From contig CAZFKS010000004.1 of NCBI GenBank assembly GCA_964519725.1, positions 11,848-75,847 on the forward strand: a stretch of 64,000 bases of DNA, given 5' to 3'. Position numbers and translations under genes: made by a program. This document shows positions 2,528 through 54,965 of the stretch, piece by piece (the first letter of the stretch is position 1; the number at the start of each line of letters is the position of its first letter). The notes beneath the pieces are model-generated. The model did no database searches. It saw only the letters and a list, made by a program, of their open reading frames with translations, and was not told where the DNA came from. The stretch comes from an uncultured Gammaproteobacteria bacterium. GTDB lineage: Bacteria > Patescibacteriota > Patescibacteriia > Magasanikbacterales > UBA922.

Positions 2528-4561
2528 ATGCTCAAACTAGAAACTTCAGTTACTGAAATTAACCGAGTGGGGGAGACTTTGGCCGCGCGCCTGAAGCGCC
2601 TGGGAATTTTTACGGTGCGCGATCTTTTGTATTATTTTCCGTTTCGGTATGAAGATTTTTCACAGGTGAGTCAGATTCGGGGCCTACAGGCAAATCAATT
2701 GGTGACAATTGCGGTGCGAATTGAAATGATTGCGGCCAAGCGGAGTCCGCGTCGGCGTGCGCTTCTCACTGAAGCCGTGGTGTCAGACGCAAGTGACCGA
2801 TTAAAAGTGGTGTGGTTTAATCAGCCTTATATTGCCAAAACTTTGGCCGTTGGTGACCAGGTGTATTTGTCTGGCAAAGTGACCGTGGATCGATACGGGA
2901 TTTCTTTAGTCAATCCTAGTTATGAGCGGATTAAGCCAGATACAGTGCATACCGCGCGCGTGGTGCCGCTCTATCCACTGACTGATGGGGTGACGCAAAA
3001 ACAATTGCGGTATTTGCTGAGTGAGGTGATTGGTCTCGCGGCGGAAGTGCCAGAGTGGATTCCAGATGAAATTTTAAAACGAGTGGAATTAATTTCTTTG
3101 CCCGAAGCGCTTAAAGAAATTCATTTTCCAGTTAATCAAAAAAGTTTAGCCACTAGTTTAGCGCGGTTAAAATTTGATGAATTATTTTTACTGCAACTGC
3201 GCGCGGAAATGTTGCGGCAGCAATTGGCGCGGGTGAAAGCACCAGTGATTAAATTTTTGGCTGACAAAATTAAAAATTTTGTGGCTGGTTTACCATTTGA
3301 ATTAACCAAAGACCAGCGCGTGGCCGCCTGGGAAATTTTTCAGGATTTGGAAAAAAGCGAACCAATGAATCGGCTGCTGGAAGGTGACGTTGGGTCAGGA
3401 AAAACCGCGGTCGCGGCTATGGCCTTGTTTTTAGCCGCTGAAACTGGGCATCAAGCCGCGCTAATGGCGCCAACGGAAATTTTGGCGAACCAACATTTTG
3501 AAACACTCAGTAAATTTTTTGCAAATAATAATTTTTCAATTAAATTAGTAACGCACAGTAAAGTGGCGAAAAAAAGTGATCGGGAAAAATTATATGAAGA
3601 AATTAAAAGTGGGGAAATTAACATTGTGATTGGGACGCACGCGTTACTTTCTGAGGGTGTGGAATTTAAAAATTTAGGTCTAGTAATTGTAGATGAACAG
3701 CATCGGTTTGGGGTGGCACAGCGGCGATTAGTAAAAGAAAAATCTGGTTTAAAAAACGCGGAGCCGCATTTTTTAAGTATGACCGCGACCCCAATTCCGC
3801 GGTCACTGGCGCTCACTTTGTATGGGGATTTGGCCTTGTCGCAACTGCGCGAAAAACCAGCTGGCCGATTACCAATTAAAACACGGGTGGTGGCGCCACA
3901 CCAGCGCCAAAAGGCGTATGAATTTATTCGCGAGCAAGTAAAAAATGGGCGACAAGTATTTGTCATTTGTCCAACCATTAATGCTGATGAAAAAAAGTCA
4001 GTGACCGTTGAGTATGAACATTTGGCCAATGATGTGTTTAAAGAATTACGGGTCGGATTTTTACATGGCAAAATGAAAGCAGTGGAAAAAGACGCAGCTA
4101 TGACCGCGTTTGCTAGTGGTGCAATTGATATTTTGGTAGCCACGTCAGTGGTAGAAGTAGGGGTGAATATTCCAAACGCCACCGTAATGATGATTGAGGG
4201 TGCTGAAGCGTTTGGACTTGCTCAATTACACCAATTCCGTGGACGGGTGGGTCGGAGTGATTGGCAATCATATTGTTTTTTATTTACTGATTCAGATTCT
4301 GAAAAAGCGAATCAACGTTTGGCATTTTTTGAAAAAACTACGGATGGTTTTGAATTGGCTGAATTTGATTTGGAAACGCGCGGACCAGGTGAAGTGTATG
4401 GCACGGTCCAAAGTGGGCTCATGCAATTAAAATTAGCGACTCTCCAGGACACTGATTTGATTAAAAAAGCGCGCGCGGCAGCCCGGGGGATTGATTTTAA
4501 AAAATATCCAGATTTGAAAAAAGCCGCGGCCAAGTGGGAAGCAGAAACGCACCGTGAATAA
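2528..4561 (+). CDS. recG: ATP-dependent DNA helicase RecG
   Basis: Walker A motif GDVGSGKT, DEQH box (VIVDEQHRFGV), helicase C-terminal motifs, and a RecG-type wedge domain at the N-terminus. Confidence 0.9.
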   Translation: MLKLETSVTEINRVGETLAARLKRLGIFTVRDLLYYFPFRYEDFSQVSQIRGLQANQLVTIAVRIEMIAAKRSPRRRALLTEAVVSDASDRLKVVWFNQPYIAKTLAVGDQVYLSGKVTVDRYGISLVNPSYERIKPDTVHTARVVPLYPLTDGVTQKQLRYLLSEVIGLAAEVPEWIPDEILKRVELISLPEALKEIHFPVNQKSLATSLARLKFDELFLLQLRAEMLRQQLARVKAPVIKFLADKIKNFVAGLPFELTKDQRVAAWEIFQDLEKSEPMNRLLEGDVGSGKTAVAAMALFLAAETGHQAALMAPTEILANQHFETLSKFFANNNFSIKLVTHSKVAKKSDREKLYEEIKSGEINIVIGTHALLSEGVEFKNLGLVIVDEQHRFGVAQRRLVKEKSGLKNAEPHFLSMTATPIPRSLALTLYGDLALSQLREKPAGRLPIKTRVVAPHQRQKAYEFIREQVKNGRQVFVICPTINADEKKSVTVEYEHLANDVFKELRVGFLHGKMKAVEKDAAMTAFASGAIDILVATSVVEVGVNIPNATVMMIEGAEAFGLAQLHQFRGRVGRSDWQSYCFLFTDSDSEKANQRLAFFEKTTDGFELAEFDLETRGPGEVYGTVQSGLMQLKLATLQDTDLIKKARAAARGIDFKKYPDLKKAAAKWEAETHRE

Positions 4562-4595
4562 AAAAGGGAAAACACTGATCAATCAAGTTCAAAGC

Positions 4596-4624
4596 TTGAC
4601 TTTTTTAATGTTTAATTGTATTTT
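4596..4624 (+). promoter_or_regulatory. promoter candidate (TTGACT, 17-nt spacer, TATTTT) for high-GC transcript 1
   Basis: It shares the 'cttgactttttt' -35 context with the promoters at 4975 and 33085 (minus strand). Confidence 0.35.
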
Positions 4625-4631
4625 CTTCATT

Positions 4632-4971
4632 AATTGGGCGACGATGCCCTAGAGGGAGAGAGCCGTGTGGATGATGGTCAACGTAAGCGGCAAGGTTAAG
4701 GAAGTCTGGATCTCCGAGGAAACAAAGGAGAAGCTAACCAGGCCCATCAAAGCTGATGGTCTACACCTGATTGGTTCTAGCTCTGGCGGAGGGCGTGTTC
4801 CTCCGCACGCACCGCGCCGTTAGCGACCACGAGAGTGTCGCGGTCCCGCTAGGGATTCCACGCTGGTCGAGGCTTATCGCCTCCCAGCCTGCCCTCCAAG
4901 AGCGGCCGACTGCTCGTGGAAGGCAGTCAAATCATAAATAAAAGCCTCTGACTAAATGTCAGAGGCTTTTT
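4632..4971 (+). ncRNA. candidate structured RNA, about 340 nt and high-GC, family unknown; may instead carry a 50-aa ORF at 4671..4823
   Basis: Promoter upstream. Dense GC hairpins include gggc-gacgat-gccc, gcggagg-gcgtgtt-cctccgc and gcgac-cacgagagt-gtcgc. No ORF of 60 aa or more in any frame. It ends at the intrinsic terminator 4941-4971 (gcctctgac-taaat-gtcagaggc followed by T5). A small ORF MMVNVSGKVKEVWISEETKEK... begins at 4671 with an upstream AGGGAGAG. Confidence 0.35.
4941..4971. terminator. bidirectional intrinsic terminator
   Basis: A 9-bp GC stem with A-tract on one side and T-tract on the other. The stem sequence gcctctgac/gtcagaggc recurs elsewhere in the window. Confidence 0.6.
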
Positions 4972-4974
4972 AAC

Positions 4975-5003
4975 TTGACTTTTTTGGTTTTGGGTGATTT
5001 AAT
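4975..5003 (+). promoter_or_regulatory. promoter (TTGACT, 17-nt spacer, TTTAAT) for high-GC transcript 2
   Basis: -35 at 4975-4980 and -10 at 4998-5003. It lies immediately downstream of the terminator. Confidence 0.4.
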
Positions 5004-5007
5004 CGCG

Positions 5008-5400
5008 CCTACGCCCAGCGGACTAGCTACCCGCAAGACATGGGCGCGAGGAGATCTCCATGAGTGAAGATGGCGGCGTTAAGCCGACCAAGCCCGGGGT
5101 GATTCGTCCCGGAAACCCCCCGAAAGGGGGCGAAGACGACTCGGGACCGACCACGGTCCCGGAGACGCCGAGATCACGGCGTCGAGTGCCTCGGTCCCTA
5201 CGCACGCCGGGCAGTGACTACGTGCGCGCCCCTGGCCTGACAGAGGGCGAGCCGTAAAGGGTGACACTGTCGCCACCCCGCCAAACTGCGGGGGCAGATT
5301 CCGCTTGATTCGCTCGCAAGAGTTCGAGTCAACAACACTCTCGGCCGCAGCGGAAGCGGCCAAATCCAAAATTAAAAAAAGCCCCGTGGTGGGGCTTTTT
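5008..5400 (+). ncRNA. candidate structured RNA, about 390 nt and high-GC, family unknown; contains a possible 65-aa Pro/Gly/Arg-rich ORF at 5060..5257
   Basis: A chain of independent GC hairpins: cccccgaaaggggg, gggaccg-acca-cggtccc, gacgccg-agatca-cggcgtc, cgcacg...cgtgcg, gggtg...caccc, ggccgc-agcggaa-gcggcc. It ends at terminator 5374-5400 (gcccc-gtggt-ggggc followed by T5). The internal ORF has GAGGAG 6 nt upstream of its ATG, but the peptide is low-complexity. Confidence 0.35.
5374..5400. terminator. bidirectional intrinsic terminator, also serving radA on the minus strand
   Basis: A7 tract, then gccccgtggtggggc, then T5. Confidence 0.6.
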
Positions 5401-5412
5401 AAATTAAACTTT

Positions 5413-6762: not shown

Positions 6763-8573
6763 TAAATTTTATTTATGCATTTCTCGTACAGTGGAAAGGC
6801 TTTAGTAACGTAACTGAAATTTCTGACCTCGTCAATTGACTTAGCTAATTTTTTCTTAAACCCACCACAACCAGCATTGTAGGAAGCAAAGGTGCCTTTA
6901 ACCAGGTCGTCACCAGTTAAACCAGCTGCTTGCGCACAGGCATAATCATCTTTAACATGTAAGACAGTCACTTTGAGATTGGTGGTGGTATCAAGTAATT
7001 CAGGAATATTGTAACAGGTCTCTTTAATTTTTATGCCGCGCGCCCCATCGCAAGTACTGTTGCCATTAAAAGTGATTTGACCAGCCCCAAAACCATGAGT
7101 AAAGCGCCAATCTAGACCATAGTCAGGTGGGCTGTTGACAAATGTATCCGCATCATCGTTTATTGTTTTGGCTGAATTATATTTTTTATAATCATACTGA
7201 CTTGAGTCAGATACTGGTGGAGTAAAAGTCGCGCCACTGTATTTTTTACCACTGATTAAAAAAGTTTGACGGGCTTCAACTGGTTTAGTGTTGCGCCGGA
7301 AATTTTCATCATGACCAATTAAATTTTGTTTTCCACCTGATTCCATGGCCATGATGGTGTCCATGAAACATTTGGGCAGGCCAGCGTCTTGGCCAAATTT
7401 TTGCGCGTTGGCAATGGTCTCTGCTTGGCTGGGTGGGGCTGTGCCAGTAATTGATTGGAAAATGGCCGGGTCAATGGTGGTGTAATTAATTTCTTGCCCA
7501 AATACAAACGGTAAACTAATTTCCGCAAAGGAAACCAGCTTTGGGTTTACGGTGTATAAAATTGTGTACCCACCAATAGCGAGCATGAGGCCACTGATTG
7601 ATTGGACAATCATGGTGCGGGCTTCGTCTTTACTGCCGGTTGGAGTGGCCCACAAAAAGCCAGCAAAAATGAGCCGCGCTGTAGCGGCAATGCCAGCAAT
7701 GATGACAATGTATTTAAAACTGGCAGCTAAATATTCACCAATAAAAGGCATGGAAATAAAGACACTGCCGTCTGGTCTGGTTTCAACATCATCAACCGTT
7801 AAATTAGAAAAATTTAAACCGGGAATTTTAATTTTTGGAACCGGCTTAGAAACTAACGTTGCAATTTCATCATTACTTAATTTTTTTTGCACAATTTCGG
7901 CAGCTCCAGGAACTTCACTCGTAATACCTGAAGCACCAGAATTATTTAGGACAATTCCTTGTTGTGAACCAAAGCCTTCTTGGGTAATGGCCTGGAAAAT
8001 TAATTTATAACCAGTTGAATTGGTGTGCAGCACATCGCCACCATATTTTTCGTCCATGATATCATCGCCATTGGTGTCAAGGGTGTTGTAGAGATTGATA
8101 AACAAGTCAATTCCACCTGGTTTACCAGTCAGCCACGTATGATTTTTTTTCAAAAATTCAGCCTGCGCTTTATATGGTTGAGCACTGACCACAATGACGC
8201 GGGTATTTTGCGTTTCAGCCGCAGTGAAAATTTTCATTAAATTTTTTTGTCCAGTATTAACCGCGGCATTATCAATAAGGCCGTTCAGCCCTGCGTAGAT
8301 TACTAGGTCGGTGTAACCTTTGCCACTAACATTAGTTTCGTATTGCTTAACAAAATCAGCCGCATCGTCACCACTGTGTGCAAAACAATTAACGGTTGAG
8401 TCAGGCAAAAGTTCGGCTAATTTTTGGTCATAGTGGTAAGTTTTACACAGCGCTTCAAATGAAGATGAGCCGATCCAAGCAATTTTTTTACCTGCGGCTA
8501 AAGAAGAATAGGGAAGTAGGCTTAAAAGTAAGCTTAAACTCAGTACTATTTTTTTGACGTTTGCCAAGGTCAT
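6762..8573 (-). CDS. secreted, membrane-anchored multidomain protein: N-terminal SGNH/GDSL-like hydrolase-like region, central pilin-like TM module, C-terminal lytic-transglycosylase-like (SLT-like) domain
   Basis: Signal peptide, then the central block PKIKIPGLNFSN...PFIGEYLAASFKYIVIIAGIAATARLIFAGFLWA. The C-terminal motifs MAMESGG...GFGAGQ are reminiscent of the SLT catalytic Glu-Ser region. Domain assignment is by eye only. Confidence 0.5.
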   Translation of the reverse strand: MTLANVKKIVLSLSLLLSLLPYSSLAAGKKIAWIGSSSFEALCKTYHYDQKLAELLPDSTVNCFAHSGDDAADFVKQYETNVSGKGYTDLVIYAGLNGLIDNAAVNTGQKNLMKIFTAAETQNTRVIVVSAQPYKAQAEFLKKNHTWLTGKPGGIDLFINLYNTLDTNGDDIMDEKYGGDVLHTNSTGYKLIFQAITQEGFGSQQGIVLNNSGASGITSEVPGAAEIVQKKLSNDEIATLVSKPVPKIKIPGLNFSNLTVDDVETRPDGSVFISMPFIGEYLAASFKYIVIIAGIAATARLIFAGFLWATPTGSKDEARTMIVQSISGLMLAIGGYTILYTVNPKLVSFAEISLPFVFGQEINYTTIDPAIFQSITGTAPPSQAETIANAQKFGQDAGLPKCFMDTIMAMESGGKQNLIGHDENFRRNTKPVEARQTFLISGKKYSGATFTPPVSDSSQYDYKKYNSAKTINDDADTFVNSPPDYGLDWRFTHGFGAGQITFNGNSTCDGARGIKIKETCYNIPELLDTTTNLKVTVLHVKDDYACAQAAGLTGDDLVKGTFASYNAGCGGFKKKLAKSIDEVRNFSYVTKAFPLYEKCINKI

Positions 8574-30689: not shown

Positions 30690-31302
30690 CCAAAGCCACA
30701 GTTTTTTTCAAAACATCGAGGTGCCAAGTTTTAGAAAATCCAACTCCAGCATCACCATCGCCAGTCACAAACTCAATAATATTTGGGGCAATTACTTTTA
30801 AACTATCATAATCAATTGCGCCCGGGTGATTACCAAGCACGCCTAAATATTGGCTTGGCGGCGCATCAGCCACATATTTTGGTTCCAAGAAAAAGTAGCA
30901 CGAATCTGGACTGTAAATTGAACCACATAAATTTTCATTACCAACCTGTTCAGTCCGGTCATTCGCAATCACTAAATAATAATCCAAACTACTGCTCGTA
31001 AAAATATGAAGCACGCGAAATTTTGCTTGCAAATAACTTTGTGAGAGTAAGGTTGAGGTCGGCGTGGTTTTGGTAATGTCAAACACTGTGCCAGGATGAG
31101 ATGTGGCAATGTCAGGCTGGTCTAAAACGCCTGTATTTTCCGTAGGCCCAGTATTTGTAGTTGAGGTTGGTGTGCTGACCACTTGGTCAGCTGGTAAAAG
31201 CTCAACGGTTTTTTGGTGCGCTTCATGTTGCGCATACCAAATTAAACCGCCTAGTCCACCCAGGACAATAATTGCTAATAAAATAAGGAGTGATTTTTTC
31301 AT
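30658..31302 (-). CDS. hypothetical membrane-anchored secreted protein
   Basis: N-terminal TM segment and a Thr/Pro-rich linker. Its 3' end overlaps tsaD by 32 nt. Confidence 0.4.
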   Translation of the reverse strand: MKKSLLILLAIIVLGGLGGLIWYAQHEAHQKTVELLPADQVVSTPTSTTNTGPTENTGVLDQPDIATSHPGTVFDITKTTPTSTLLSQSYLQAKFRVLHIFTSSSLDYYLVIANDRTEQVGNENLCGSIYSPDSCYFFLEPKYVADAPPSQYLGVLGNHPGAIDYDSLKVIAPNIIEFVTGDGDAGVGFSKTWHLDVLKKTVALVEQQNISYLD

Positions 31303-31340
31303 AAAATATTTTCCTTACCTTAACACGCTAAGCCCATTTT

Positions 31341-31368
31341 GGCAATAAAAAAACGGCCCCGCAGGACC
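31341..31368. terminator. intrinsic terminator downstream of hup
   Basis: aaaaaacggccccgcaggaccgtttttt. Confidence 0.5.
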
Positions 31369-31383
31369 GTTTTTTCTGGCAAT

Positions 31384-31665
31384 TTAGAGCACTGCTTCTT
31401 TAGCAGCTTTAGCCAAGCGGAATTTAACAACCGTTTTGGCAGCAATTTTAATAGTGGCGCCAGTGGCTGGGTTGCGACCAGTGCGAGCAGCACGGCGAAC
31501 CTTAACCATTTTACCAAAGCCTGGCACAACAAACATGCCATTCTTTTTCACTTCTTTGTAAGCAGTGGCTGAGAGGAGGTCGAGCACCATGCCGATATCC
31601 TTTTTACTTAAACCGGACTTGTCTGCTAAGAGACTTAGCAAAGCTGATTTTGTCATTCCTGACAT
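31384..31665 (-). CDS. hup: DNA-binding protein HU
   Basis: Bacterial histone-like family signature MTKSALLSLLADKSGLSKKD...GFGKMVKVRRAARTGRNPATG. Confidence 0.85.
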   Translation of the reverse strand: MSGMTKSALLSLLADKSGLSKKDIGMVLDLLSATAYKEVKKNGMFVVPGFGKMVKVRRAARTGRNPATGATIKIAAKTVVKFRLAKAAKEAVL

Positions 31666-31786
31666 ATGAGGTTGTTAAATTAACCTTAATAATATTGAGT
31701 ATTATAGCGCGCGTGTGGAAATACGCAACAAAAATAAGGGTGAAAATACCTAAGCTGTGGAAAACTTCGCAAAATAGGGGAGTAGG

Positions 31787-31815
31787 TTGACAAAATTACA
31801 TTTTTAAATTATAAT
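31787..31815 (+). promoter_or_regulatory. consensus sigma70 promoter (TTGACA, 17-nt spacer, TATAAT) for the high-GC Nudix-like gene
   Basis: Perfect -35 at 31787-31792 and perfect -10 at 31810-31815. Confidence 0.55.
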
Positions 31816-31883
31816 TCACTGTTCTGAAAATTTGGGAATGTCCCGAATTGACAGACAAGTTCTTTAAACGTGAGGTCTTACAA

Positions 31884-32420
31884 ATGGTTTCGATCCGTCG
31901 TTTCAATGTCCCTGTGTTCATGCTCGTTGACGATGGCGCCGGCACTGGCACCTACAACCACCTCCCTAACGACGTCTATGACACGATCAAGCGGTGTATG
32001 CCGATCTTTTGTGTCGACATCATCGCCATCACCTCTCACAGCAAGGTCTGCCACCTGGCCAAGCGCCGGCGCACGCCGTGCCAGGGCTGGTGGTGGTTTG
32101 GAGGTCGGCTCGGTCAGGACGAACTGCCCGAGAACGGCGCAACGCGCATTCTCGAGCGCGAGCTCGGGATCCACATTGACCCGGGGCGATTCAAGGTCGC
32201 CGGGGCGGTATTTCAGTACTTCAACGAACCGGAATGCCGGGGCACCTTCCCGGTGTTCCAGCTCAGCTTCGAGATCACCGCTGAGGAGCTCGCCGCGGTC
32301 CGTCTGGACCCGGGCGAGTACGAGGCCGACGTCGGCCTCCGAGAGTTCAGCCTGGCTGACTTGCAGACCGAGGGGGTCAACCCCCTCATCGCAGCGGTCG
32401 CCCGCGACCTGCTCTTGTAA
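31884..32420 (+). CDS. Nudix-like hydrolase, high-GC and likely horizontally acquired
   Basis: GRLGQDELPENGATRILERELGI approximates the Nudix box Gx5Ex7REUxEExGU. The preferred start is ATG 31884 (MVSIRRF, RBS GTGAGGT) rather than the TTG at 31848. About 65% GC. Confidence 0.5.
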   Translation: MVSIRRFNVPVFMLVDDGAGTGTYNHLPNDVYDTIKRCMPIFCVDIIAITSHSKVCHLAKRRRTPCQGWWWFGGRLGQDELPENGATRILERELGIHIDPGRFKVAGAVFQYFNEPECRGTFPVFQLSFEITAEELAAVRLDPGEYEADVGLREFSLADLQTEGVNPLIAAVARDLLL

Positions 32421-32469
32421 TCTCTTCACCACCCCTAATCCCGCCTCTACCAAAATCCCAACTGGTGGA

Positions 32470-32510
32470 GGCTGCAAAACCCCCTGTCTCCACCACTTTT
32501 ATTTCTAAAG
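32470..32510 (+). terminator. intrinsic terminator
   Basis: gtggaggctgcaaaaccccctgtctccac followed by ttttatttc. Confidence 0.5.
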
Positions 32511-32559
32511 TTTGGAAGTAAAAGTGGCAGGGAGTTTTGTTATTTATAAAACAAAAAAC

Positions 32560-32610
32560 AGCCATGAATGACTGTCTTTTGTTGCGCCTCTGATTCGTCA
32601 GAGGCAGCGT
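32560..32610 (-). terminator. tandem-hairpin terminator module at the 3' flank of a high-GC gene
   Basis: On the minus strand: gcctctga-cgaa-tcagaggc, then gacagtcattcatggctgtc, then T6. It is homologous to the 3' flank at 33090-33162. Confidence 0.5.
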
Positions 32611-32663
32611 CCCAGAACTCGGCGCGGCGTCATGCGGGTTCAATGGGAAGCGCCAGGACGGCG

Positions 32664-33065
32664 CTAGCGGTGGGCGAAGGAGACGATCGCCTCGGCGAGT
32701 TCGTGGGGCTTGGCGCCCCAGGACTCGCACTTCTTCTTGAAGGCTTCGTCGTCTTCAAGTTTTCTTTCGGTCTCATCACAAGTCCAGTTCTTCCTCTCGT
32801 GGCTCGGGACATCTTGTCCATTGTAGATTGAGATGAAGTTGAACTTGGGCACCTTTCCTTTTTCGAAGGTGAACACGATGACCTTACGTTCACCGTCATT
32901 TTTGCAGAATCGTGTGACATCGAGGCGCTTCGTGCCCTCGAATTTACCACCGACGCGAGCGGGTTCGTTTTCGAGTAGCTTTTTGGGGTCGATTTCGATG
33001 AAACGCACTGAATATCGCTCCCTAGGTTGCCTGTTACCAGGCGTGATTTGTGCTAAACTTAGCAT
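32664..33065 (-). CDS. hypothetical protein, high-GC
   Basis: ORF-track ORF. A more likely start is GTG near 33005 with an AGGGAG RBS, giving about 113 aa. No family recognised. Confidence 0.45.
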   Translation of the reverse strand: MLSLAQITPGNRQPRERYSVRFIEIDPKKLLENEPARVGGKFEGTKRLDVTRFCKNDGERKVIVFTFEKGKVPKFNFISIYNGQDVPSHERKNWTCDETERKLEDDEAFKKKCESWGAKPHELAEAIVSFAHR

Positions 33066-33069
33066 AAAA

Positions 33070-33100
33070 CAATAAAAAAGTCAAGGTACAAAATGAAAAA
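33070..33100 (-). promoter_or_regulatory. promoter candidate (cTTGACTTTTTT context) for gene 32664..33065
   Basis: The minus-strand sequence reads ccttgacttttttattgttttatgctaagttt. It is the same -35 module as at 4596 and 4975. Confidence 0.3.
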
Positions 33101-33162
33101 ACAGCCACCTAAGTGACTGTTTTTTCATTGGGCCCCTGACACGTCAGAGGCAGCGTCCTGGA
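33090..33162 (-). terminator. terminator module at the 3' flank of gene 33225..33773
   Basis: Shares the 16-mer gtcagaggcagcgtcc and the A-tract/acagcc...gactgt/T-tract hairpin with 32560-32610. Confidence 0.45.
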
Positions 33163-33224
33163 TCTCGGCGCCGATTGCTCGGCACCAAGCTCAGACAGGA
33201 GTGATCCGGAGAGGATCACGTTGC

Positions 33225-33773
33225 TCAGCTCTTGTGGAGCGAGCGCCGGCGGCCGACCATCTTCATGATCAGTGCCAGAGTGGGGAGGTAGACGAGACCC
33301 CCACCGGTCTCCTGGACCTGGATAAGTCCGCGCTCCTCGAACCGCGCGAGGATGACGCGGACCTCGTCCGGGTCCATCCGCTCATCGGAGATCTTGTTGT
33401 CTTCGAGGAGACGTGTCTTGCTGACTCCGATCCAGCAGAGGCGTTCGGCAGCTTCTGCGGCCGTGGTGTTGGTAGGGAGAGACTTGAAGTCCTCCCACAT
33501 GTACACCAGGAGGCGCGCTCCGAGCGCGTCCTCCACCTTGCTGTCGAGGATTGGATTACAGGCGTCGGGGCGGTCCAGCCCCCACCGGACGAGTCGAAAC
33601 TCGCCGGGGAGACAGGGTGCCCCTTCGAGGTCGAACCGGTAGAGGCCCGGTCGACCAGGGATCTCTGCGCACCTTGACATTGTGAAAATTCTCCCTGAAA
33701 CGAACATCCGGCGGGGACGCCGGAAAGAGTGGATGAAACGGCCAACGCGAGCAGTGAAGAGGCCAGTGGCCAC
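33225..33773 (-). CDS. hypothetical protein, high-GC, possible C-terminal winged-helix
   Basis: ORF-track ORF with GTG at 33773. An alternative start is ATG MSRCAEIPG near 33680 with an AGGGAG RBS. C-terminal ...VRVILARFEERGLIQVQETGGGLVYLP. Confidence 0.45.
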   Translation of the reverse strand: MATGLFTARVGRFIHSFRRPRRMFVSGRIFTMSRCAEIPGRPGLYRFDLEGAPCLPGEFRLVRWGLDRPDACNPILDSKVEDALGARLLVYMWEDFKSLPTNTTAAEAAERLCWIGVSKTRLLEDNKISDERMDPDEVRVILARFEERGLIQVQETGGGLVYLPTLALIMKMVGRRRSLHKS

Positions 33774-33799
33774 CTACAGCCTTTCGTCGTTGACGCGCC

Positions 33800-33828
33800 A
33801 GTATACACAAAAATCCCTTTTTTGTCAA
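33800..33828 (-). promoter_or_regulatory. consensus sigma70 promoter (TTGACA, 17-nt spacer, TATACT) on the minus strand
   Basis: The RC of 33823-33828 is TTGACA and the RC of 33800-33805 is TATACT. Confidence 0.5.
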
Positions 33829-33919
33829 GAGGATAACTTGATAAAATCCCTTAAATTAGCCAAAAAAATTAAAAAACCACGGCTATTAACCGGGTTTTGT
33901 CGACGATTTCCGTCATTTG

Positions 33920-33991
33920 TAGCGCCAAGGGGAATTGAACCCCTGTTCTCAGGTTGAAAACCTGATGTCCTAACCATTAGACGATGGCGCC
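33920..33991 (-). tRNA. tRNA-Glu (anticodon TTC)
   Basis: Hand-folded. Acceptor GGCGCCA/TGGCGCT, D-loop AATGGTTA, anticodon stem TCAGG/CCTGA, loop TTTTCAA, T-loop TTCAATT. No CCA encoded. Confidence 0.75.
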
Positions 33992-34039: not shown

Positions 34040-34068
34040 TTGACAACCGCGCCGGCGTCTGATATTAT
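34040..34068 (+). promoter_or_regulatory. sigma70 promoter (TTGACA, 17-nt spacer, TATTAT) for rplJ-rplL
   Basis: The -35 lies inside the palindrome ttgtcaactattgacaa. Confidence 0.5.
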
Positions 34069-34069
34069 C

Positions 34070-34214
34070 TTCACATCAACCGCAGACAGTAGCTTTTCCC
34101 GCCAGGGAACTTAAATACGCTACCGAGGTCACATTTCACTTAAGAAATGTTCTTCTTAAAGGTCGCTGCGGTAATCAGCGCTTTTTTATTTTAAAAAGCG
34201 CACAATTACCAAAT
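34070..34214 (+). promoter_or_regulatory. ribosomal protein L10 leader-like structured 5' UTR (possible autoregulatory attenuator)
   Basis: A 145-nt leader with long-range complementarity (accgcagac...gtcgctgcgg) and an agcgc + T6 attenuator-like element directly before rplJ. This is the usual position of the L10(L12)4 binding leader. Confidence 0.35.
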
Positions 34215-54066: not shown

Positions 54067-54139
54067 GCTGCTGTAGCTCAGTTGGTAGAGCGCGTCCATG
54101 GTAAGGACGAGGTCACCAGTTCAATCCTGGTCAGTAGCT
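54067..54139 (+). tRNA. tRNA-Thr (anticodon GGT), the integration target of the downstream islet
   Basis: Hand-folded. Acceptor GCTGCTG/CAGTAGC with one G-U pair, anticodon stem CGTCC/GGACG, loop ATGGTAA, T-loop TTCAATC. Confidence 0.75.
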
Positions 54140-54144
54140 CTAGT
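54106..54144 (+). repeat. attL-like 39-bp direct repeat (3' half of tRNA-Thr(GGT) plus 5 nt)
   Basis: gacgaggtcaccagttcaatcctggtcagtagctctagt is identical to 54927..54965. Confidence 0.85.
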
Positions 54145-54217
54145 TGGCGCCCGAGAGGGTGTTTTTTATTTTAATAAAAAACCAGAGAGTAAGTTTTGGT
54201 TGTTTTGTGAAATATCC

Positions 54218-54246
54218 TTGACAAAGATCCATTTTTGCTTTAGAAT
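54218..54246 (+). promoter_or_regulatory. consensus sigma70 promoter (TTGACA, 17-nt spacer, TAGAAT)
   Basis: -35 at 54218-54223 and -10 at 54241-54246. An AGGAGG RBS at 54343-54348 sits 8 nt before GTG 54357. Confidence 0.5.
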
Positions 54247-54356
54247 CCATTGTTAATTTGTCTATGGTAACAGGTAGGTCTCTGGCCTTTCTATTACCCT
54301 CGGCAATCATAAGTCTGCGCCTTGGGGGCTGAAAAGCTGCAGCAGGAGGAACTCCC

Positions 54357-54686
54357 GTGATCAACTGTCTGGTGACTTCCAAGGTTTCGCTGACCGATGA
54401 CATGCGGTACACCCTGTACCGCACCGCGTTCGAGATGTACATGAACAAGGTCGCGGAGCGCAAGGTGCGCACGCCGGGCTTCAGGGCCACGATCAAGACG
54501 GATGGCGAGCATGGGGTCATGGGTACGATCGCCGGTATCGTGTTCTCGGCCACGGTCGACACCGACCGCGGCGAAGGACTCGTGACCTACATCGTCCGGG
54601 GGCGCGATCTGTGCCAGCCCGAAGACGGTGTCTGGATCCCACTGCCCCGCGACTTCGCGCCCGTCGCCGACTACAACGTGCAGTGA
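54357..54686 (+). CDS. hypothetical protein (109 aa), high-GC, cargo of the tRNA-Thr islet
   Basis: GTG start with a perfect SD. About 65% GC. No recognisable family (MINCLVTSKVSLTDDMRYTLYRTAFEMYMNKVAERK...). Confidence 0.5.
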   Translation: MINCLVTSKVSLTDDMRYTLYRTAFEMYMNKVAERKVRTPGFRATIKTDGEHGVMGTIAGIVFSATVDTDRGEGLVTYIVRGRDLCQPEDGVWIPLPRDFAPVADYNVQ

Positions 54687-54772
54687 CCCCTCGAGGGACG
54701 GGGTCACCTCTTCCAGTGTGTCACCGCAAGGCACTGGTGGGAGTCCAAGGTTGTTCAACTTGCGGTCCCATC

Positions 54773-54800
54773 AAAAACAGCTTTGCCAAAGGCTGTTTTT
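54773..54800 (+). terminator. intrinsic terminator of the islet gene
   Basis: aaaacagctttgccaaaggctgttttt. It has the same A-tract/acagc...gctgt/T-tract style as the terminators at 32560 and 33093. Confidence 0.55.
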
Positions 54801-54926
54801 GTTTTAATAAAGTGAAATTTACTCATTTCCATATAGATGGAAATAGAGAATAAACCAAGTTTTATTAAAAACAAGGTTGTTGCAGGTTCTGCCATTCAGG
54901 GTTTTTAACTGAGTAAAAAGTAGAAA

Positions 54927-54965
54927 GACGAGGTCACCAGTTCAATCCTGGTCAGTAGCTCTAGT
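54927..54965 (+). repeat. attR-like 39-bp direct repeat (partial tRNA-Thr 3' end)
   Basis: Identical to 54106..54144. It is followed by the hairpin aaaccgcc-atct-ggtggttt + T7, the likely original tRNA terminator. Confidence 0.85.

Follow-up and report, generated by a model that had tools for sequence, protein, structure and literature searches.

A tRNA-flanked islet of moron-like, GC-rich single-gene units in a Candidate Phyla Radiation genome

Genomes of the Candidate Phyla Radiation (CPR) are very small and the routes by which they gain new functions are poorly understood; the locus described here shows recent gain at single-gene resolution. It lies in a 64-kb stretch of contig CAZFKS010000004.1 ("the window" below, meaning the whole 64,000 nucleotides analysed) and consists of three small genes, here called A, B and C, that stand between the HU gene (31384-31665, minus strand) and a tRNA-Glu(ttc) gene (33919-33991, minus strand, with its 3′ end towards them), upstream of the L10 leader and the L10-L7/L12 operon. 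Did these genes arrive together as one module or as separate units, and is their origin foreign? The locus is a recent, cleanly delimited and unusually modular horizontal acquisition in a CPR genome, and not a new system; we consider it probable that it is a strain-variable hot-spot islet of three independently acquired, moron-like single-gene units and not one operon.

Composition and layout of the islet

The window has a GC content of 43.8%, and the three genes depart from it to different degrees (A 62.7%, B 52.5% and C 63.8% GC). Measured in 200-nt windows, GC is 0.585-0.66 across 31900-32499 and 0.595-0.635 across 33100-33799, with 0.45-0.52 between them, and AT-rich spacers occupy 32420-32560 and 33010-33100, so the locus is made of three GC-rich open reading frames (ORFs) kept apart and is not uniformly 60-65% GC over 2 kb. 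An initial annotation, made from the sequence alone, had described about 2 kb at 60-65% GC in a genome of about 40%; the contrast stands, but the uniformity does not, given the AT-rich spacers and the lower value of B, and the genome figure is nearer 44%. By codon position, GC1/GC2/GC3 are 0.65/0.42/0.82 in A, 0.54/0.35/0.69 in B and 0.67/0.45/0.79 in C. The GC and codon profile that had been proposed as a check therefore separates the islet, with GC3 of 0.69-0.82, from native genes, whose GC3 is 0.28-0.43, and the surroundings are not similar in GC. Since GC3 exceeds GC1 and GC1 exceeds GC2 in the annotated frames, these are coding sequences moulded by a GC-rich mutational background and not just GC-rich DNA, and codon usage of this kind implies that they spent a long time in a genome of ~60-65% GC.

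Each gene has its own promoter, and the near-consensus promoters reported in the initial annotation were all found again. Gene A (31884-32420, plus strand, 178 amino acids (aa)) lies behind a 12/12 match, TTGACA-17-TATAAT (31787-31815, plus strand), and gene C (33225-33680, minus strand, 151 aa) behind an 11/12 match, TTGACA-17-TATACT (33800-33828, minus strand); only 13 sites in the 64 kb reach at least 11/12, the others including those of tRNA-Glu, tRNA-Val and the L10 leader. The promoter of gene B (33056-33085, minus strand) consists of C-TTGACT (33084-33079), a 17-nt spacer and a TG-preceded TAAGTT (33061-33056); it contains the exact word CTTGACTTTTTT at 33085-33074 (minus strand) with TGcTAAGTT downstream, and this word also stands at two further units at 4595 and 4974 (below). 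Gene B itself (32664-33008, minus strand, 114 aa) begins with GTG. The gene caller's choice of start, an ATG at 33065 that would give 133 aa, lies inside the promoter spacer and hence upstream of the transcription start if the B promoter is used, so that the GTG at 33008 is the likely start. The ribosome-binding hexamer AGGGAG precedes both B and C at the correct spacing. In C it follows a GC-rich 5′ leader of ~120 nt (33681-33799, minus strand) in which a hairpin (33724-33707) lies directly upstream of it; the folding z-score of this leader, -1.55, is not significant.

Genes B and C are in tandem on the minus strand and both converge on A; they had been described as two convergent proteins of unknown kind, and the second half of that description holds while their mutual convergence does not. 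They are separated by a 140-nt 3′ untranslated region (UTR) that includes a terminator with 17-bp arms. The claim that every gene has its own hairpin terminator is firm for B (32552-32583) and C (33092-33129), where a long A-tract, a stem and a U-tract follow one another, but for A there are only weaker candidates: the 3′ region at 32443-32527 (plus strand) contains the potential stems GCCTCTACCA/TGGTGGAGGC and GGTGGAG/CTCCACC, the latter followed by a U-run, and a hairpin at 32493-32527, and it was missed by a consensus terminator scan. From these signals the three genes would be expected to be expressed independently and strongly.

The 3′ flanks of B and C are homologous, as had been noted, and their resemblance extends over about 85 nt. 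The B module (32540-32625, minus strand; folding z-score -6.15) has the hairpin GCCUCUGA-CGAA-UCAGAGGC followed by the A-tract/stem/U-tract terminator, and the C module (33087-33171, minus strand; z-score -8.99) is its homologue; the 3′ UTRs of both genes fold alike, with in turn a variable hairpin, a conserved hairpin GCCUCUGA(C)/(G)UCAGAGGC and the long A-tract/U-tract terminator. The 16-mer GTCAGAGGCAGCGTCC is identical in the two and occurs exactly twice, at 32597 and 33143 (shuffled sequences average 0.12 matches when up to 3 mismatches are allowed), and identity is 82% over 49 nt. The B unit consequently has a copy of an 85-nt direct repeat on either side, at a period of 546 bp. Gene A has no copy of the module. 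A scan of metagenome and viral contig collections for the pattern of the 3′ module gave no match, and neither this module nor the CTTGACTTTTTT promoter word occurs in the ~1.2 Mb of related loci that were searched, which makes this backbone specific to the present genome. The duplication of a cassette backbone that the initial annotation proposed is thus borne out in part, by the shared 85-nt module and the shared promoter word, but no recombination machinery or defined site was found that would go with it.

Variation between strains and across the clade

An 810-bp contig in the European Nucleotide Archive (ENA), L001, comes from a different sample and shows that part of the islet varies between close relatives. 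Its positions 96-809 are 97.8% identical to window positions 31776-31064 (HU/hyp214), and its positions 1-82, ~20 nt upstream of the conserved HU leader, are 92.7% identical to 33168-33087, a C-type 3′ module. Because it joins such a module to the HU upstream region, the segment 31777-33086, which holds the A and B units together with the promoter of A, is missing from that strain, and the difference is a strain-level insertion or deletion. The module in this contig is C-like in its 5′ part and B-like in its outer stem and downstream flank. A Logan contig has the same arrangement as the window, with 100% identity over 2680 bp from HU to tRNA-Glu, and exact-protein look-ups of the flanking and islet genes returned only one Logan sample and one ENA contig. 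In the Logan assembly of SRR11567520, contigs end at 31266 (inside hyp214) and at 33945-33967 (inside tRNA-Glu), which brackets the islet and is consistent with strain heterogeneity, since this would make the assembly graph branch there.

The genome that carries the islet is a CPR genome, since the closest relatives of its TsaD, at 76-79% identity, are in metagenome-assembled genomes labelled Candidatus Magasanikbacteria/Patescibacteria. Core genes in the window include recG, radA, pheST, dnaE, tsaD, HU, L10, L7/L12, mreB and fpg. Homologues of A, B and C are absent from all 77 related tsaD loci, so that none of the three is a conserved core gene at this place, which the initial annotation had asked of related genomes. 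The synteny of L10, tRNA-Glu and tsaD is kept in related genomes and what follows tRNA-Glu varies. In two loci (L005 and L061) tRNA-Glu abuts tsaD with nothing inserted; L004 (7380-8884) has two different GC-rich ORFs, at least one of them with its own TTGACA promoter, and a weakly matched MazG-like gene; L057 (1694-3167) has a 139-aa ORF without family match behind TTGACA-17-TATACT and a 237-aa Nudix gene with a weak Pfam match; L013 (2613-3692) has a PNP_UDP_1 nucleoside phosphorylase after tRNA-Glu; and in L031 and L047 other GC-anomalous genes stand immediately 3′ of it. This variable content identifies the 3′ flank of tRNA-Glu as a place where, across the clade, foreign genes accumulate that are mostly GC-rich, in other words as a hot spot. 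The Nudix gene of L057 was considered as a homologue of A and rejected, as the two are not detectably related, which indicates independent acquisitions and not a conserved gene. L004, like L057, has ORFs that match no family. The recurrence of nucleotide-metabolism genes here (L057, L004 and L013) may reflect selection for nucleotide-hydrolysing enzymes, or it may be coincidence.

The foreign origin of A, B and C by horizontal gene transfer is supported by the contrast in GC3, the lack of homologues in the 77 loci, the absence of A and B from a strain of 97.8% identity and the variability of the locus. The initial annotation had proposed acquisition, for example from a high-GC partner; GC3 and the strain-level absence uphold the acquisition, but not the partner, as no donor was identified. 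GC-anomalous islands are frequent in the related loci and some resemble recognisable metabolic enzymes, in agreement with a survey that attributes up to 13% of Patescibacteria genome length to genomic islands and to genes transferred one by one (PMC12455944). In two of the loci, 16-19 nt from the 3′ end of a tRNA gene were also seen exactly repeated ~140-175 bp downstream of that gene (L031, 3804-3819, for tRNA-Glu at 3978-4050; L059, 8423-8441, for tRNA-Pro at 8211-8284), which suggests scars of past att-site integration, at tRNA-Glu among others.

Elsewhere in the window the same type of unit recurs four times. The tRNA-Thr(ggt) gene (54067-54140) is followed by an 821-bp insertion (54145-54965) bounded by two perfect 39-nt copies, in direct orientation (54106-54144 and 54927-54965), of a sequence that comprises the last 35 nt of the tRNA and 4 nt more. 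Such a perfect duplication is the signature of att-site recombination, and it places att-type integration at work in this genome. The insertion contains one GC-rich ORF (54357-54686, 109 aa, GC3 0.86, without family match and without relatives in a viral contig scan), a promoter TTGACA-17-TAGAAT at 54218 and a terminator at ~54770-54800; it has no integrase inside and looks like a miniature integrated element or its remnant. A second GC-rich unit (1325-1771; 56% GC, GC3 0.76, in a neighbourhood of 41-44% GC) encodes 148 aa and carries a promoter-like site of its own, with an A-tract/U-tract terminator at 1795-1830, and its product has no match in Pfam, NCBIfam, PADLOC or PHROGs. Between recG and radA lie two GC-rich (57-65%) units in tandem, 4595-4975 and 4974-5402, each of which opens with CTTGACTTTTTT; this word has three copies in the window, at these two units and at B only. 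Their ORFs are only 56-65 aa long and none is convincing (the 65-aa ORF of the second has no codon-position GC signal), their folding z-scores are -5.4 and -5.9 and they have no Rfam match; they may encode very small proteins or be structured RNAs of an unrecognised kind. In the 4595 unit the stem of the terminator, GCCTCTGAC/GTCAGAGGC, is a 9-mer of the conserved hairpin in the B and C 3′ modules, and the palindromes that it forms lie at 4944-4966, 32586-32605 and 33132-33151. We considered GCCTCTGAC as a DNA-uptake sequence and rejected it, since it has 6 copies in 64 kb, 4 of the 6 inside GC-rich units, and is not among the over-represented k-mers. Foreign GC-rich gain is thus found at no fewer than five sites within 64 kb, and the GC-rich unit that runs from promoter to terminator is a genome-wide habit that is not peculiar to the tRNA-Glu locus.

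The tRNA-Glu gene has a 12/12 promoter (34036-34008) and a terminator (33892-33880), and the L10 leader, an ordinary feature (34062-34196; Rfam RF00557 at 44 bits, which equals the gathering score) lies upstream of L10-L7/L12 behind the promoter TTGACA-17-TATTAT at 34040. Inside the islet Rfam gave no match, either at gathering scores or at E <= 10.

The proteins encoded in the islet

The plus-strand protein had been called Nudix-like and this is confirmed: residues 44-163 of the gene A product match Pfam NUDIX (PF00293) with 29.8 bits (cut-off 21.1; E = 6.6e-7), although its Nudix box is incomplete. Against the canonical GX5EX7REUXEEXGU it reads G74-x5-E80-x7-R88-I-L-E-R-E93-L-G95-I, with Ile89 and Arg92 in place of two signature Glu residues; the same two glutamates are gone in GDP-mannose mannosyl hydrolase (GDPMH), and loss of key Nudix-box residues is documented for this sugar-cleaving clade (PMC5389931). 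The best solved structures are indeed those of E. coli GDPMH (PDB 1RYA/2GT4; E = 1.5e-7), to which ~110 residues can be aligned, with the Nudix box RILERELGI of A opposite RLTMAELGL. The best NCBIfam match is likewise the GDPMH subfamily, NF011963, at 34.8 bits, which is below the curated cut-off of 146. The only relative of gene A among 5.8 billion proteins is P0002, a product of a 1965-bp contig with 53% identity, and a 25-residue N-terminal extension is shared by these two alone. The alignment with GDPMH stops short of residue 124, the histidine that is the catalytic base in the glycosidic (C-O) cleavage of GDP-sugars by that enzyme, and at its presumed position A and P0002 have (G/S)EYEA. 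Among GenBank phages a tblastn search with gene A gave a sole match, a cyanophage "GDP-mannose glycosyl hydrolase" of 35% identity, and a scan of metagenome and viral contigs with the A/P0002 alignment found no relatives. Judged by these comparisons the gene A product is best described as a divergent GDPMH-like (GDP-mannose mannosyl hydrolase-type) Nudix protein that is not assigned to the GDPMH family, and it would be expected to hydrolyse a nucleotide-sugar or a related NDP-X compound.

Genes B and C have no match in Pfam, NCBIfam, PHROGs, PADLOC, PDB, GenBank phages or IMG/VR. In an exhaustive HMMER scan of 1.84 billion representatives gene B matched itself alone, and in a word-indexed protein search the same was true of gene C; nor was a co-occurrence of A, B and C found elsewhere in the protein searches. 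Single-sequence AlphaFold2 models of the two are unreliable (pLDDT, the predicted local distance difference test score, is 48-50, with C at 48) and Foldseek searches of PDB with them gave nothing below E = 0.2. In the model of C the C-terminus forms helices and then a beta-hairpin, and the top of its Foldseek list consists entirely of winged-helix proteins, all with E > 0.2, a hint at most that C may bind DNA through a winged-helix domain.

The folding of the coding regions was compared with dinucleotide shuffles and gave z-scores of -2.9 for A, -2.7 for B and -4.6 for C; the averages are about -0.7 for native genes and about -1.4 for the other GC-rich genes of related loci. The antisense strands of A and C, the two that were tested, fold with the same z-scores as the sense strands, and this stability therefore probably comes from the composition of the DNA, through local palindromy, and not from functional RNA structure.

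Acquisition of the units, alternatives and known systems

The origin that we favour for the islet is that three separate single-gene units were gained one after another, 3′ of tRNA-Glu. Each unit is a minimal module for expression, with a sigma70-type promoter, a Shine-Dalgarno site, a GC-rich ORF that had evolved at ~60-65% GC and an intrinsic terminator; acquisition may have proceeded by recombination at or near tRNA and terminator sequences, and genome streamlining may then have cut each acquisition back to its promoter-to-terminator core. Several observations weigh against this account. A recent transfer from a sequenced high-GC lineage should leave close homologues, and no donor was found. 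The stretch 31000-33899 contains no match to tRNA-Glu or its flank that reaches 13 nt, such as a tRNA fragment repeated at the far border would give, and no integrase-like ORF is apparent among the window ORFs of at least 80 aa, for which the list was inspected and not searched with profiles; with neither border repeat nor apparent integrase, the way in which the three units were inserted can only be inferred. The strain difference is read from a single 810-bp contig that does not fix the direction, gain or loss. Simple illegitimate insertion fails to explain why AT-rich, native-style promoters and terminators stand exactly at the borders of the ORFs and why motifs are shared between units. 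Finally, it is base composition, ribosome-binding sites and ORF length that speak for B and C being protein-coding.

The sharing of motifs in particular could mean that the units are cassettes of a dedicated capture system, integron-like or resembling the integrase-less elements that are mobilised in cis, with a common backbone of CTTGACTTTTTT and the GGACGCTGCCTCTGAC hairpin plus terminator, a recombinase encoded elsewhere and the 3′ module or the tRNA end as attachment site. The direct repeats that bracket the B unit, the mosaic module of the L001 contig, the restriction of the exact promoter word to three GC-rich units, the head-to-tail order of these units (4595 and 4974, and C then B), the integrase-less insertion with its att-like duplication at tRNA-Thr and the confinement of both motifs to this genome would all fit. 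However, inspection of the window ORFs brought no integrase-like candidate to light, the 3′ module has neither the R″/L″/L′/R′ layout of attC nor a GTTRRRY core on inspection of its sequence, A is oppositely oriented and lacks the module, and the module is unmatched in the contig collections; moreover, the A-tract/CAG.../U-tract style of terminator is generic in the clade, which weakens part of the similarity, and the mosaic could also be due to compensatory substitutions in the terminator stem. On balance we think such a system unlikely. A bolder form of the idea, which we hold to be rather improbable, is that Magasanikbacteria, and perhaps other CPR, harbour an undescribed class of miniature, integrase-less mobile expression cassettes. 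Just as speculatively, these would be units of 0.5-0.8 kb built on the CTTGACTTTTTT promoter and the hairpin-plus-terminator backbone and mobilised in trans; they might insert beside tRNA genes or into each other's 3′ modules; and their cargo might, at a similarly long shot, derive from a high-GC gene pool that is as yet unsampled, perhaps that of the organism on which these presumed episymbionts live, or of its phages. Taken together, the shared motifs, the 85-nt repeats around B and the tRNA-Thr element leave room for a possible mobilisation mechanism.

If A, B and C were instead one defence or toxin-antitoxin-like module gained in a single event, as the initial annotation had entertained, one would expect what is seen of their size, adjacency and variable, tRNA-adjacent location; C, if winged-helix, would lie upstream of the small B in the antitoxin-before-toxin order, and Nudix proteins do occur in some defence contexts. 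This suggestion did not hold up and we rate it as very unlikely: the genes form separately terminated transcription units, each with its own promoter and with the 17-bp-arm terminator between B and C, a C-type 3′ module is present without the A and B units in the L001 strain, the three genes were not found together elsewhere, and in PADLOC, where B and C are unmatched as they are in Pfam, NCBIfam and PHROGs, the only hit is a weak generic Nudix match of A (PDC-S07, E = 3e-3). There is even less reason, in our judgement, to take B or C or both for GC-rich structured RNAs whose ORFs are by-products of high GC, perhaps along with the 4595-5402 units. The lack of homologues of B and C, the low folding z-scores of their coding sequences and the strong folding of the 4595-5402 units, which are GC-rich and without convincing ORFs, would suit that idea, but GC3 > GC1 > GC2 holds in exactly the ORF frame, AGGGAG stands at the right distance before both starts, antisense strands, where tested, fold equally well and there are no Rfam matches. 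Abrupt compositional switches in metagenome data also call to mind an assembly artefact in which high-GC contaminant reads were joined into a CPR contig, but the GC-rich ORFs alternate with AT-rich spacers of native style and have core genes on both sides, the Logan contig is identical from HU to tRNA-Glu, and the ENA assembly of another sample also joins a GC-rich 3′ module to HU; with two assemblies from different samples we regard an artefact as extremely improbable.

If the cargo came from a host or partner of Magasanikbacteria, such genes would be usable as host-tracing markers, and if the shared backbone belonged to a genuine system of mobilisation, streamlined genomes would have a new way to capture genes.

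How does the islet compare with systems already known? GDPMH (NudD/WcaH/Gmm; PDB 1RYA/2GT4) has the same modified Nudix box as A, with the second and fifth signature positions not Glu, but A differs from it in scoring far below the family cut-off, in its 25-residue N-terminal extension and in the region of His124, which does not align and where A has EYEA. Integron cassettes are co-oriented, mostly promoterless and have attC at their 3′ end. The islet units resemble them in being compact, with a single ORF and mostly without known relatives, in that two are arrayed head-to-tail and in that a shared, structured element specific to the species marks the 3′ end of some of their ORFs, but there is no IntI, attI or attC signature, all three units bear promoters, and A is inverted and lacks the element. 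Like tRNA-associated islets and integrase-less cis-mobilisable elements the units lie 3′ of a tRNA at a clade-variable locus, and the 821-bp tRNA-Thr element is similar to the latter in its 39-nt att-type duplication and lack of an integrase, whereas the tRNA-Glu islet has neither tRNA-fragment repeat nor integrase and its units, at 0.55-0.8 kb, are far below the size of typical islands. In organisation the units parallel phage morons of the HK97/HK022 type, as defined in PMC3594210, which likewise are single genes between conserved neighbours with their own promoter and factor-independent terminator, deviate in GC and are present or absent between close relatives (for the islet the evidence on these signals is at the level of motifs). 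Morons sit in phages or prophages, whereas the islet units adjoin the tsaD, HU, tRNA-Glu and L10/L12 genes, and the phage and viral collections hold nothing nearer than the 35%-identical cyanophage Nudix match of A. The locus stands as a well-documented accessory islet, made up of moron-like units and flanked by a tRNA gene.

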